Below, piece after piece: positions 39,880 through 48,466 of a DNA stretch of 56,042 nucleotides. How positions within the stretch are numbered: position 1 is the stretch's first letter; each line of letters opens with the position of its first letter. The position numbers and the translations under genes were made by a program. The notes under the pieces were generated by a model, which was not told the DNA's origin, did not search any database, and was given only the letters and a program-made list of their open reading frames with translations. Origin of the DNA: Chlamydiales bacterium. Its GTDB lineage: Bacteria; Chlamydiota; Chlamydiia; Chlamydiales; SM23-39. The stretch covers positions 1-56,042 of the forward strand of contig DATIIR010000058.1 of NCBI GenBank assembly GCA_035479435.1, written 5' to 3'.

Positions 39880-41622
39880 ATGGAAACGGTGTTATCGGTT
39901 TTTAAAAAGAAGGTCACCGATGCGATGGTTCGCGCCTTTGGAGATGCCCTCTCTGCCGAAGAGGCCAAATCTGACATAGCCCCCTGCGCGCAGGAGGAGT
40001 TTGGCCATTACCAGTGCAATAGCGCACTTCGCCTCTCCAAAATCTTGAAGCAAAATCCCCGCGCTATTGCTCAGAAGATCATCGACTGTTTCGACTCCGA
40101 CATGTGCTCCAAAGTCGAAATCGCGGGGCCTGGCTTCATCAACTTCACCCTTTCGCCCTCCTTTTTGTCTCACCAATTGGAGCAGCAATTAAACGACCGC
40201 TTTTTGGGCGCTTGCCCTCCTGCAAAGAGACAAAAAATCATCGTCGAATTCTCCTCTCCAAATATCGCCAAGGAGCTCCACGTCGGTCATATCCGTTCGA
40301 CCATCATCGGCGATTGCCTGGCGCGCCTCTTTGAATTTTTGGGACAAGACGTCCTCCGTTTGAATCACCTCGGCGACTGGGGCACGCAGTTTGGGATGTT
40401 GATCACCTACATGAAGGCCTTTTGCCCTGCCGTTTTGAGTGGCGATGAACCCACGGATCTAGAATCGCTGATGCAGTGGTACAAGGCCTCCAAAAAGCGA
40501 TTTGATGAAGACCCCGAATTTAAATCCAAGGCGCAAAAAGAGGTGGTCCGCCTCCAAGCCGGTGAAAAAGAGTCGATCCATGCTTGGAAACTCATTTGCG
40601 AAGTATCGCGCAAGGGCTTTCAGGAAATTTACGACCTGATGCATGTCCGCATCACCGAGCGAGGTGAGTCGTTTTACAACCCCTATCTCAAAGACGTAGT
40701 CGAGGAACTCGATCGGAAAGGGTTGGTGACTATTTCCGATGGCGCCAAGTGCATCTTTCTCGAAGGCTTCCAAAACCGCGAAGGGGAGCCGCTCCCCCTC
40801 ATGATCCAAAAATCGGATGGGGGCTACAACTACGATACCACCGACCTCGCTGCCATTCGCCATCGCATTCAGGTGGAGAAAGCCGACCGGATTATCGTCG
40901 TCGTCGATGCGGGCCAATCGCTCCATTTCGATATGATTTTTGCCGCCGCGAGAAAGGCGGGTTGGCTCGACTCTAAAGTGGAGGCCGACCATGTGGGATT
41001 TGGCCTCGTCCTCGGCGCTGACGGGAAGAAATTCAAGACCCGTTCAGGGGAGACAGAAAAGTTGATCGATCTCCTGCATGAGGCGATCGATAAGGCGCGC
41101 ATCATCATCGCCGAGCGCCTTCCCGAAGCCGATCCGAAAGAGGCAGACCACCTCGCCCATGTCCTTGGGATTGGCGCTGTCAAGTACGCCGACCTCGCCT
41201 CGCTCCGCACGAAAGATTACACATTTAGCTATGAGCGGATGCTCCGTTTTGAGGGCAATACGGCTGTTTTTCTCCTCTACGCCTACGTTCGGATCAATGG
41301 GATCAAGCGAAAAACGCACGCCGACATGCGCCAAGTTCTAGCCCATCACAAGATTGCAGTGAACCACCCCTCTGAAATTTCTCTGGGCCTCCATTTGCGC
41401 CGCTTTGGAGAGGTTCTCGACACGATGGCCCGCGACCTTCTCCCCAATCGCCTCACAGATTATCTCTATGAACTTGCGGAGAAGTTCAACGCCTTCTTCC
41501 GCGACTGCAGAGTCGAAGGTTCTCCCGAAGAGGGAAGCCGCCTCGTCCTTTGCGAGCTCACGGCCCGCGTCCTCAAGCAAGGCCTCGAGATCCTCGGCCT
41601 AGAAACCGTCGACCGAATGTAG
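39880..41622 (+). CDS. argS: Arginyl-tRNA synthetase
   Basis: SSPNIAKELHVGHIRS (HIGH region), the class I core, and a DALR anticodon-binding C-terminus. Confidence 0.95.
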   Translation: METVLSVFKKKVTDAMVRAFGDALSAEEAKSDIAPCAQEEFGHYQCNSALRLSKILKQNPRAIAQKIIDCFDSDMCSKVEIAGPGFINFTLSPSFLSHQLEQQLNDRFLGACPPAKRQKIIVEFSSPNIAKELHVGHIRSTIIGDCLARLFEFLGQDVLRLNHLGDWGTQFGMLITYMKAFCPAVLSGDEPTDLESLMQWYKASKKRFDEDPEFKSKAQKEVVRLQAGEKESIHAWKLICEVSRKGFQEIYDLMHVRITERGESFYNPYLKDVVEELDRKGLVTISDGAKCIFLEGFQNREGEPLPLMIQKSDGGYNYDTTDLAAIRHRIQVEKADRIIVVVDAGQSLHFDMIFAAARKAGWLDSKVEADHVGFGLVLGADGKKFKTRSGETEKLIDLLHEAIDKARIIIAERLPEADPKEADHLAHVLGIGAVKYADLASLRTKDYTFSYERMLRFEGNTAVFLLYAYVRINGIKRKTHADMRQVLAHHKIAVNHPSEISLGLHLRRFGEVLDTMARDLLPNRLTDYLYELAEKFNAFFRDCRVEGSPEEGSRLVLCELTARVLKQGLEILGLETVDRM

Positions 41623-41630
41623 CGATTCAA

Positions 41631-41988
41631 CAAGTCTATCTACGCAGGGCAGAGAACAGGATAACGACTCGCTCTCGCGAGTCTGAAGATATCCACTCGC
41701 TGCGCGAGTGGGCAAGATACGTCCGCCTGATGGCGGACTGGCAGGATAAGAGAAAGGGGGAGCGCCGGGCCCAGCCTCCGGCTGGTATTGCGCCTGCGGC
41801 GCAATTGCGAATTGCATTCGCGCCCGGCGCTCCCCCGCTTCGCGTCTTCTTGGGGCGCGGGGCCTCCCCGCATCTTGTAAGCCTGCTATCAAGCAGGCGT
41901 ATCGTGCCCACTCGCAACGCGAGTGGACATCCTTAGGCTCGAGAGAGCGAGCCGTCATCCTGTTCCCCGCCTTGCATAGATAGACTTG
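41631..41988. repeat. 358-bp long inverted repeat composed of serial short hairpins
   Basis: Arms of about 140 bp (CAAGTCTATCTACGCAGG... versus ...CCTTGCATAGATAGACTTG) are roughly three-quarters identical as reverse complements. At least 10 local hairpins are present, for example 41693-41711 and 41908-41926. Confidence 0.85.
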
Positions 41989-41996
41989 TGGGTAAC

Positions 41997-42021
41997 AAAA
42001 AAACGCCTCCTAGAGGAGGCG
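41997..42021 (-). terminator. Rho-independent terminator downstream of epmB
   Basis: On the minus strand: CGCCTCC-TCTA-GGAGGCG followed by T7. Confidence 0.65.
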
Positions 42022-42151
42022 CCAAATAACAAAAAGGTGATTAGGGTTATTATGAATAATTAACAATGGTTGGTTGTTAATCGCCATTGATTATAGCAAA
42101 ATCATTAATATAGTTACAGTGAAGATTTTACGTTACATTAAGTATTTATTA

Positions 42152-43153
42152 TCAATAAGTTATGAATGTTTTGCTTGGCATGCCGGGCTCTTCCCTCGCG
42201 AATCGGGGGACCCCAAAGCCCGACAGGTTTTCTTGGATGTGGCGGATGAGCTGAAGGCCCCTCTCATCGGAGACGGCAAAGTGGCTGGTCCCCTGAACGG
42301 GGTCTAGGGCGTGAAGGTAGTAGGGGATCACACCTGCGTTGAGAAGCTCCTCGGACAGCGAGAGGATCGTCTGTTCATCGTCGTTCACTCCCTTCAGAAG
42401 TACCGATTGATTCAGCACGGGGATGCCGAGCGATTGGATCTTCTTCAGGCCGCCCACGACATCTTGGTCGAGTTCCCTCGGATGGTTTACATGGACGATG
42501 AAAACCATTTGCTTAGAAGAGTTTTCTAAAAGGTCGAGAAACGAGTCGTCGATCCTTTCGGGGATGCCTACGGGGAATCGGCTGTGGAAGCGGATCCGTT
42601 TCAGGTGGGGAATGGCCTCGAGCGCGCGGAAGAAAGTGACCAGGGCGCCATCGCTCAGAGACAGGGGGTCGCCGCCGCTGAGGATGATCTCCGCAATGGT
42701 TGGGTCTTGGGCGATGTAGGCGATTTCGTTGTCAAAACTTTTTTCCTCAGTTTCGTAGGGAAAATTTTGTCTAAAACAGTAGCGGCAATGCATGGCACAG
42801 GCGCTCGTCGCCACCACCAGGGCCCGCCCCTGGTACTTGTGGAGAATTTTCTTTGTTTTTTTGAACCGTTGATCTTGCACGGGATCGGTGACAAAGCCAG
42901 GAGTGATGGCCAGCTCCTCTTCCAAGGGCACAAATTGGCGCAAAATGGGATCGTCCAGTGTGTTCTTGGCTATTTTTGCGGCGAGCCGTTTGGGGAGATT
43001 GAGGATAAAGCGGGGCTGCTTCAGAACACGCTTCTTCAGTGCATCTGACAGTTCCAAAAACTCGAGGAGGGGTTCGATTTGTGTGAAGTTTCCTCTCTGG
43101 ATTTGGCGCCACAGGGGGATCGCTTGTGTTTTCTCTGGGCAAAGGACGGTCAT
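42152..43153 (-). CDS. KamA-family radical SAM protein (lysine 2,3-aminomutase / EpmB-like)
   Basis: CAMHCRYCFRQNF radical-SAM cluster motif and ILSGGDPL. Confidence 0.88.
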   Translation of the reverse strand: MTVLCPEKTQAIPLWRQIQRGNFTQIEPLLEFLELSDALKKRVLKQPRFILNLPKRLAAKIAKNTLDDPILRQFVPLEEELAITPGFVTDPVQDQRFKKTKKILHKYQGRALVVATSACAMHCRYCFRQNFPYETEEKSFDNEIAYIAQDPTIAEIILSGGDPLSLSDGALVTFFRALEAIPHLKRIRFHSRFPVGIPERIDDSFLDLLENSSKQMVFIVHVNHPRELDQDVVGGLKKIQSLGIPVLNQSVLLKGVNDDEQTILSLSEELLNAGVIPYYLHALDPVQGTSHFAVSDERGLQLIRHIQENLSGFGVPRFAREEPGMPSKTFITY

Positions 43154-47542: not shown

Positions 47543-48466
47543 TTATACGACATTGCGAGAAAATTGGACAGTTTTTCCACGCACGCTCAATTGATTCGGG
47601 AGAAGACCGTCTTGGATATGTGTAAAATAGAGACGCTTTTGTGGCATTTGCAGTGCAACCCAGCTCATCGTTTTGCGCGCATTGATCTCGACGATCGGAT
47701 GCACCCGCTTTTTTCCTTCCCACAGATAGATGAAACTGTCGATTCCCACGTAGCCTGAGTAGCCGAGCTTCGCAATCTTCTCAATCAACGGCTTTGCCAC
47801 TGCAAGATGTTCTTCCAGCGCCCATGTTTCGACACTGGCTTCAAACGTTCCTCTGTACGTGCCGTTGGGTTCATTTTCAAAAACAGTGACGCCTAAAAGG
47901 GCGCCATCCTTCCACTGCGTGCTGAAGTCTTGGAGCCTCTCCACCCACGGTTCTCCTATGAGAGGGCCAATGTAAAGCCGCTTTACATTGGGATTTAGGA
48001 CGTGGCCTCTACCTGCGGTTCCGAAGGGCGTTTTCAACACCTTTGGCCCCGGTGTCTTGGCAATCCATTGGGTGATTTCTTGGCCGGTTTCGAGCAGAGC
48101 GGCGCCGGGTAAGGGGGGCGATTCTGTGAAGGAGAAGATCTTTGAGTTCACTTTCTGGACCACATTCCATGGCGGGATAGTGTAGGGGATGTGATGGCTT
48201 TTGGCCCAGCGGGCGATCGCCTCGGAGGGGCCCCAGTGTTCGATGTGGGTGGTGCCTGGTGGGGGTTCAAGGCAGAGGCGAGGGTCTGGATCTCTGGGTA
48301 GGTCGGAGACCAAAATGGAGTCGTTGGGCCCGGCGTAGAGGAGAGGGAGAAATTGGAGCTGCATCACGACCGGATGGGAGCGGATCCACTCGGCCAACGG
48401 TTTTTTGTCTCTGGTTTCGAGCTCTTTTTCAAAAAAAGTATTGCAAATGTGGAGTGGCGACGACAT
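47543..48466 (-). CDS. ATP-grasp-like hypothetical protein
   Basis: The C-terminal half carries [13 protein letters not shown]...[10 protein letters not shown]...IVEINAR, an ATP-grasp-like Mg/ATP motif pattern. Confidence 0.65.
47967..47991. repeat. Iterated palindrome copy f (perfect 25-bp form)
   Basis: CCAATGTAAAGC-C-GCTTTACATTGG inside the ATP-grasp ORF, translated as PNVKRLYIG. Confidence 0.92.

Follow-up and report, generated by a model that had tools for sequence, protein, structure and literature searches.

The window, a stretch of 56,042 nucleotides, belongs to the metagenome bin of an environmental chlamydia (here G000; 1.77 Mb, 52% G+C, 168 contigs). The locus under study lies between two convergent genes. 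On the plus strand, an open reading frame at 39880-41622 encodes an arginine--tRNA ligase (argS; TIGR00456, 516.7 bits), and on the minus strand a radical-SAM gene of the EpmB/KamA family occupies 42152-43153, with a score for TIGR03821 (361 bits) that falls just below the cut-off of this model (369 bits). The spacer between them contains a palindrome of about 360 bp (41631-41988; 61% G+C, the adjoining spacer having 31%). An earlier note had claimed a 358-bp inverted repeat here, and a repeat search of the window bore this out, returning arms of 118 nt at 41630-41747 and 41872-41989 that are 80% complementary. The ten hairpins listed in the same note are all genuine local palindromes, the clamp of 15 nt around a 51-nt core is present and 100% complementary, and the mirror-image ORFs of 77-128 aa, which it had regarded as artefacts, have no Pfam match and recur as the same sequence in unrelated spacers. 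Folded as RNA, 371 nt of the locus reach -254.9 kcal/mol, compared with -146.3 +/- 5.5 for 100 dinucleotide shuffles (z = -19.75), none of which is as stable as the real sequence.

Alignment of the copies described below allows the element to be divided into several parts. It starts with an outer end module of type A at 41626-41655 (TTCAACAAGTCTATCTACGCAGGGCAGAGA, a degenerate version of the family consensus TTACCCACAAGTCTATCTATGCAAGG), and the TAG stop codon of argS lies 3 nt upstream of its first base. The left arm follows on the plus strand (41656-41750, repeat spacing 28) and is matched at 41655-41751 by the covariance model R1 with 103 bits. In this arm, four direct words (ACAGGATAAC at 41656-65, GAAGATATC at 41685-93, CAAGATAC at 41713-20 and GCAGGATAAG at 41741-50) have three hairpins between them (41666-83, 41693-711 and 41721-38), with a period of 28-29 nt. 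Further inward, the two halves of the clamp, GGGGGAGCGCCGGGC at 41756-41770 and GCCCGGCGCTCCCCC at 41822-41836, form a perfect inverted repeat around the invertible core of 51 nt (41771-41821), which consists of three small hairpins (41771-85, 41787-805 and 41807-21). In single-stranded or cruciform DNA, core and clamp would form a cloverleaf-like four-way junction. Only the right side has an extra module at 41837-41871, composed of a GCTTCGC(G) mini-palindrome and the hairpin GCGGGGCCTCCCCGC (41857-71), and pieces of this module of about 27-31 nt also stand alone in G000 and related genomes. The right arm (41871-41963, minus strand) mirrors the left one; R1 matches its minus strand at 41868-41964 with 93.5 bits, its words are CATCTTG (41871-77), GTATCGTG (41899-906), ACATCCTT (41927-34) and GTCATCCTGT (41954-63), and its hairpins lie at 41881-98, 41908-26 and 41936-53. 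The right copy of the A module, ending in ..CTTGCATAGATAGACTTGTGGGTAA, closes the element at 41964-41995. Some copies possess an A module at one or both ends, others a B module or neither. The terminus of the right A module (41983-41995) reads TGTGGGTAA, and TGTGGATAA is found in two other copies, at the element ends on C145 and C96. Both match the E. coli DnaA-box consensus, TTATCCACA, in 8-9 of 9 positions, a likeness that may be due to chance.

Outside the element, an intrinsic terminator (GGCGCCTCCTCTAGGAGGCG followed by TTTTTTTG) is located at 42002-42023 on the minus strand, where it ends a leftward transcript. The earlier note had placed a separate terminator near 41997-42021. The hairpin and the T-run are indeed present, but they do not serve the argS strand, and the conclusion that the palindrome is unneeded for termination is flawed, since this terminator acts on the other strand. 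A GC hairpin followed by a T-run was not found on the argS strand within 41500-42300, where the minus-strand site is the sole terminator-like one. The same terminator belongs to a conserved candidate sRNA unit between epmB and the element (minus strand, 41998-42099). The candidate has an extended -10 box, TGCTATAAT (42099-42091), and then about 85 nt in which a 5' hairpin ATTAACA..TGTTAAT, a conserved single-stranded stretch, CCCUAAUCACCUUUUU, that resembles an anti-Shine-Dalgarno sequence, and the terminator (42023-42002) are located. Promoter, hairpin, seed and terminator are all kept in G003 and G012, and the unit has no Rfam match. In G007, the argS-epmB spacer (C6) contains a different palindrome with CAGGAT words and lacks the candidate sRNA and the terminator of G000, G003 and G012, which might reflect either a repeated use of the same spacer or a replacement.

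The arm is not unique to this spacer. R1 detects 27 arm matches in G000. About eleven near-full copies of the element, 82-89% identical, lie on 11 contigs, and four shortened, internally deleted copies (C64, C113, C96 and C148, the latter a mini version with one hairpin) bring the spread to 14 contigs. The suggestion of a head-to-head pair of an uncharacterised repeat was therefore right, and the opposite case considered by the same author, an arm unique in the genome and absent from relatives, does not apply, as the arm is dispersed in G000 and has homologues in related genomes. All copies in G000 are intergenic, and according to crude ORF calls none of 13 lies between divergent genes. Most are situated just downstream of a gene, several of them beginning 3-35 nt past a stop codon, and with respect to the adjacent genes they may point either way. 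The identity of 82-97% among copies does not by itself demonstrate recent activity of the element.

Some of the copies have conspicuous surroundings. Those at C119:5455-5945, C128:493-984, C66:669-1163 and C148:300-460 have extended flanks in common on both sides and lie inside a larger repeated region at contig ends; in the C148 copy a single hairpin unit is left, as expected from a deletion between the arms. A second palindromic family with low-complexity ends of the GCCCGAGCCCG/GGGCACGGGCACGCACACG type (C81:6537-6770 and C2:33985-34060) often adjoins the hairpin-train element on one side (flanks of C111, C145, C96, C77 and C120), and at C145 a 24-nt piece of this family was apparently inserted along with the element. 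The iterated palindrome at 47967-47991 of the window was considered as a relative of the element and rejected, since its sequence is unrelated.

Comparison of orthologous spacers revealed empty sites. G003 and G012, which belong to the same genus, lack the element: in both, an A-run, the terminator hairpin known from G000 and the conserved spacer AAAAAGGTGATTAGGG come directly after the argS stop codon. Since these spacers are empty, we conclude that the element was inserted at argS. The copy on C145 occupies the spacer after a pgl-like gene, which we take, from its translation and by eye, to encode a 6-phosphogluconolactonase-like protein, and four relatives lack the element at this site. For the C120 copy, a search of five relatives did not recover the protein that flanks it. 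Neither of the two empty sites, at argS and at C145, reveals a target-site duplication of at least 3 bp. Of the 14 elements of which both ends are seen, about 8 are flanked by TA. As a self-complementary dinucleotide, however, TA may be part of the inverted repeat itself, which makes a TA duplication indistinguishable from a repeat that is simply longer. Many elements of G014, G007, G349 and G010 have the form TA|ACAGGAT...ATCCTGT|TA or TA|CAGGAT...ATCCTG|TA, and the ends ..ACAGGAT / ATCCTGT.. are conserved across genera; the outermost ends in G000 are fuzzy and mosaic. In most relatives, argS ends with ATG TAA, in G000 with ATG TAG followed by the element, which is compatible with an ancestral TAA stop codon whose TA was the insertion site. 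A palindromic target site, GACTGTTAACAGTC, was also considered, but it is absent from the genome, and GACTGTTA is part of the element end instead.

The small hairpins are maintained by compensatory changes. In a seed alignment of 20 arms, 95.7% of the stem cells pair, 13 of the 22 pairs have changes on both sides (55 double-change cells), and G:U accounts for two one-sided changes; slid controls pair in 24-45%. In an alignment of 107 arms, which was fitted to the covariance model and is therefore biased to its structure, 96.2% of 1884 stem cells pair, 21 of 22 pairs covary, and 308 double-change cells stand beside about 6 G:U cells (slid controls 25-42%). The MAFFT seed agrees with this larger alignment, and no shuffle reached the observed values for pairing, double changes and covariation, either for the seed (0/500) or for the 107 arms (0/500). 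In the ten full copies of G000, the local stems are 99.0% paired, versus 82.1% for the long-range pairing of left with right arm at the same positions. Therefore, it is the train of small hairpins that is maintained and not a duplex of 360 nt. The third hairpin illustrates this, since its stem differs between the two arms (GTCCGCC versus GCCTGCT) and is perfect in each. The near absence of G:U pairs points to a constraint that acts on the two DNA strands alike, rather than to an RNA helix. Palindromic DNA, hairpins in cruciform or single-stranded form, or hairpin-templated repair could underlie it.

Another feature of the family is the inversion of its core. Judged against the left and right arms, which can be told apart, the core is oriented as in the window in four copies (C58, C120, C60 and C111) and reversed in the other seven of the eleven (C66, C119, C128, C108, C145, C77 and C24), with the break exactly at the clamp. 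If the arms alone are compared, the nearest relative of every copy of the first kind is one of the second kind. Moreover, left and right arms have discordant nearest neighbours; C60 and C128, for instance, are 97.4% identical in the left arm and 84.6% in the right arm. Since core orientation is not linked to arm similarity and the nearest neighbours are discordant, inversion and/or exchange between copies must have occurred several times. The core might flip by recombination or by replication template switching between the clamp halves. In plastid DNA, a flip-flop of hairpin loops by template switching is established.

The analysis of copies from G000 together with relatives from G007, G014, G349, G435 and G386 (CAITMJ01-type) resulted in a common grammar. 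Within an arm, copies of a word with the consensus ACAGGATAAC and the core RGAT (family words "CAGGATAAC", of the CAGGAT(A/G)AC type) are arrayed in direct orientation, with RRGATRNC and AGGATAC as weaker internal forms. The words alternate with hairpins of 7-8 bp with loops of 3-4 nt in a period of 28-29 nt. Inward of the arm come a purine run and a clamp that is rich in GC and has CCGGGC at its end; beyond it lie three small hairpins, the other half of the clamp and the mirror arm. The words are kept between genera whose argS genes are just 69-76% identical in nucleotides, whereas the stems vary, those of unit 1 being GACTCGC, GCCTCGC, GGTTTGC or GCTTCGC. Outer modules of the G000 copies are also present in G435 (type A, TTACCCACAAGTCTATCTATGCAAG.., and type B, CCCACATCTGTTCCTGCTAAAAACAGG..), where the copies possess yet another outer inverted repeat that is absent from G000. 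Other centres are found between the arms as well: two clamp-core units in G007, an unrelated sequence of about 400 nt in G010 and an insert of about 240 nt in one copy of G349. In G014 and G349 there are words alone without hairpins. The double word ACAGGATNNNCAGGAT occurs 59 times in G349, 33 times in G014 and 12 times in G007, the reversed pattern giving no matches. The inner hairpin modules were never found outside the composite. The element of the window is thus one elaborate member, apparently nested, of a superfamily defined by the CAGGAT word. A further arrangement of such words was noted in G014 (locus L101, C80:780-3900), where a glycogen phosphorylase gene lies between two small CAGGAT-word elements in mutually inverted orientation, a bracketing that could promote inversion or loss of the gene.

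The distribution of the arms is restricted and patchy. Within the same GTDB family, R1 has matches in 23 of 103 genomes (in 13 of 53 genera), and a scan of about 140 genomes that represent about 40 further families of the order, each at least 90% complete, gave no match. The nine richest genomes possess 7-37 arms, among them G349 with 37, G000 with 27, G007 with 22, G386 with 14, G435 with 11 and G014 with 9. Detectable arms are missing in 80 of the 103 genomes of the family and even in 8 of 13 genomes of the same genus. The composite, with its A module, also recurs in G435, a member of another genus, at 81-84% nucleotide identity over 300-340 nt. The G435 composite and that of G000 are about as alike as the copies within G000, and the argS products share 78% of their amino acids and the genes 74% of their nucleotides. 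On the basis of these comparisons, the patchiness and the discordance of G435 fit better with horizontally spreading selfish DNA than with an ancestral host function. Plasmid and phage collections yielded no match, and a scan of viral contigs with the double word returned chance matches and collagen-like coding repeats. In metagenomes, the family pattern identified two real members, both on contigs of 1 kb, and the flank pattern none; an exact look-up of the EpmB protein gave no strain variants on record. A search of full-text literature yielded no account of a comparable chlamydial family, and the hairpin-train family has apparently not been described before.

An enzyme that might mobilise the element was searched for in metagenome bins. 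Such bins frequently lack transposases, plasmids and near-identical repeats, so that the absence of a gene carries little weight. The RAYT/IS200 domain PF01797 is absent from the element-rich genomes checked for it (G000, G007, G386, G349 and G014). Across the family, Y1 genes are not associated with the element; they are present in 40 of the 103 genomes, in 8 of the 23 carriers of arms and in 32 of the 80 non-carriers, and at 12 Y1 loci of the family no R1 arm lies beside the gene. The TA flanks and the CAGG tips drew attention to IS630/Tc1 elements, but DDE_3 occurs in G014 only and the ends there (TATACCACGACC..) are unrelated. The G000 assembly contains no DDE_3 (IS630), DDE_Tnp_1 or IS110 gene, and its single rve gene lacks CAGGAT ends. 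Between paired arms, no transposase was detected in the genomes searched. A search for an autonomous parent, with inverted word arrays 1-3 kb apart, returned two candidates, both of them around host genes, judging by eye presumably a glycogen phosphorylase in one case and a GTPase of the EngA/Der type plus one further ORF in the other.

Taken together, the structure at argS is probably a copy of a non-autonomous, non-coding mobile repeat of the MITE/REPIN kind, confined to a single family of environmental chlamydiae. The repeated words may be binding sites of a mobilising protein that acts in trans; they are direct within an end and inverted between the ends, like the words of transposon ends that have several such sites. 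The palindromic form of the hairpin spacers might be maintained in the DNA itself, either through template switching or hairpin-templated repair or because mobilisation requires extruded or single-stranded hairpins. The G000 copies appear to be nested, with clamp and core inside the CAGGAT arms and these inside an outer A or B module. At the present locus, such an element would have landed between the stop codon of argS and the terminator of the convergent small transcript. Its position at argS would be incidental and any effect on the argS mRNA, for instance by a very stable 3' hairpin, a by-product.

It is conceivable, though unlikely, that the elements are instead an array of BIME-like protein-binding sites domesticated by the host, in which the words and/or extruded hairpins bind a nucleoid, topoisomerase or replication protein, and that their retention is due to a role in DNA organisation or in the insulation of transcription units at the ends of genes. 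The earlier note had also named a BIME-like array. The mosaic of modules agrees with it, whereas the inner modules, which occur only in the composite, and the lack of a RAYT do not. The conservation of the words across genera while the stems drift, the regular spacing of 28-29 nt, the location of copies at gene ends and never between divergent genes, and the strand-symmetric constraint on the DNA would all be expected of a domesticated array, as would the other CAGGAT palindrome in the argS spacer of G007. However, a host function is difficult to reconcile with the many genomes in the family (80/103) and in the genus (8/13) that have no detectable arms, with empty orthologous spacers and unconserved positions, with copy numbers that vary from 0 to 37 arms, and with a near-identical subfamily that is common to another genus and not to sister species.

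Slightly less probable still is that the word-plus-hairpin units and the flip/flop cloverleaf core together are the substrate of a machinery acting on single-stranded DNA hairpins. It could be a nickase or transposase unrelated to the RAYTs, or a rolling-hairpin-like copying process. This would be compatible with the data, because conservation concerns the hairpins and not the long duplex, and strictly as Watson-Crick pairs, because no clear duplication and no DDE parent were found, and because the inversion is exact to the clamp, much as in the flip/flop termini of parvoviruses. If true, it would mean a new mechanistic class of bacterial mobile DNA and not an ordinary deletion derivative of an insertion sequence.

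We consider it improbable that the hairpins are maintained by a function in RNA, that is, as a structured 3' UTR which serves as RNase III substrate, mRNA stabiliser or terminator, as known from Correia and REP sequences. The fold is extremely stable, it begins 3 nt past the stop codon of argS, a gene without a T-run terminator of its own, and most copies follow a gene directly. On the other hand, a permissive scan of Rfam 15 gave best scores of 12-25 bits against thresholds of 42-141, most of them on the neighbouring terminator, and we regard these as chance matches. Arms and core occur in either orientation relative to the upstream gene, which together with the lack of an Rfam match points in the same direction as the scarcity of G:U, away from an RNA helix. 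About 6 G:U cells in 1884 versus 308 double changes is the pattern of a DNA palindrome, and preservation concerns the small hairpins, whereas RNase III would need the long duplex. The earlier proposal of a structured RNA or RNase III substrate as the selected function is thus not supported, in view of the missing Rfam match, the two orientations, the rarity of G:U and the strand symmetry of the hairpins.

The recurrent flipping of the core, with both orientations in existence (4 versus 7 copies) and bounded exactly by the perfect inverted repeat, brings to mind a site-specific switch, in which a recombinase inverts the 51-nt core between the 15-bp clamp repeats and thereby toggles a signal. 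Such a switch is very unlikely, since 51 bp are far below the substrates of known invertases, the G000 assembly contains no serine recombinase gene, the core has no promoter-like sequence and each locus is assembled in one state only. Moreover, a hairpin flip-flop by template switching, for which plastid DNA provides the precedent, accounts for the data without an enzyme. Finally, an idiosyncratic local duplication-inversion or a chance palindrome, which is what the structure looks like within the single window, is refuted by the many copies in G000, the homologous family in 22 other genomes, the empty orthologous sites and the z-score of -19.75.

As a non-autonomous mobile repeat, the element shares a number of properties with the MITEs of Neisseria, the Correia elements (CREE/Nemis). 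Both are short, non-coding, multi-copy and intergenic, have inverted-repeat ends and fold as a whole into a long hairpin; empty orthologous sites exist, TA is often found at the ends, and the elements can become part of 3' UTRs. However, with about 360 bp the chlamydial element is two to three times longer, its arms are word arrays with independently conserved hairpins, and in its centre there is an invertible core of three hairpins. In addition, neither a parent insertion sequence or transposase nor a clear target duplication was found for it. Small size, lack of coding capacity, multiple copies, terminal inverted repeats and empty orthologous sites are thus all features that it has in common with MITEs, but an autonomous insertion sequence with the same ends was not found in the genomes searched, which are incomplete metagenome bins.

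There are also parallels to the REP, BIME and REPIN sequences that depend on RAYTs, i.e. Y1 transposases similar to those of IS200/IS605. These include a short tag followed by a GC-rich hairpin, head-to-head arrangement, location at gene ends, mosaics of modules and the preservation of the hairpin through compensatory change. Unlike the REP tags, which read GTAG or CGTC, the chlamydial tag is AGGAT(A/G)AC. The inner units were never found singly, a Y1 gene is lacking in the richest genomes, and the Y1 genes of the family have no flanking arms. Hence, neither a hairpin of 20-40 bp that has one of the REP tags and is found both single and paired nor a cognate RAYT flanked by the repeats was observed.

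The palindromic elements of Rickettsia (RPE) are likewise selfish palindromic repeats of an obligate intracellular bacterium with no known transposase. They differ in length (100-150 bp) and are often located in frame within genes, whereas the chlamydial elements are strictly intergenic, and no likeness in sequence was seen. A long stem around small palindromes that exists in two orientations is reminiscent of the flip/flop in the AAV ITR of parvoviruses and of the flip-flop loops of plastids, a resemblance that is one of analogy only. The chlamydial elements are chromosomal, internal and multi-copy, and the comparison is not meant to extend to a Rep-type nickase or to rolling-hairpin replication. 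Finally, transposon ends with several binding sites, such as the IR/DR of Tc1-like elements and the ends of Tn7 and Mu, resemble the chlamydial ends in having 3-5 direct copies of a word per end, inverted between the ends, with the outermost word at the tip and, in many chlamydial copies, TA or TTA before it. The chlamydial spacers between the words, however, are conserved perfect hairpins, and no transposase of the IS630/Tc1, Tn7 or Mu type is linked to them.

Mobile DNA is usually considered scarce in chlamydiae. The present analysis indicates that an elaborate superfamily of repeats marks the intergenic DNA of many environmental chlamydiae. This is also of practical concern, since the elements fragment metagenome assemblies: copies lie near contig ends on C66, C119 and C128, and in G386 arm matches begin at bases 6-65 of the contigs C8 and C30. 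Moreover, annotation pipelines may call genes from the spurious mirror ORFs of 77-128 aa. Beyond that, the family constitutes a natural data set on the upkeep of DNA palindromes, in which compensatory changes bypass G:U intermediates, pairing within local hairpins takes precedence over that between distant arms and a loop segment inverts repeatedly. A protein that reads the ACAGGATAAC word would reveal whether a new mechanism of mobilisation exists in these bacteria.
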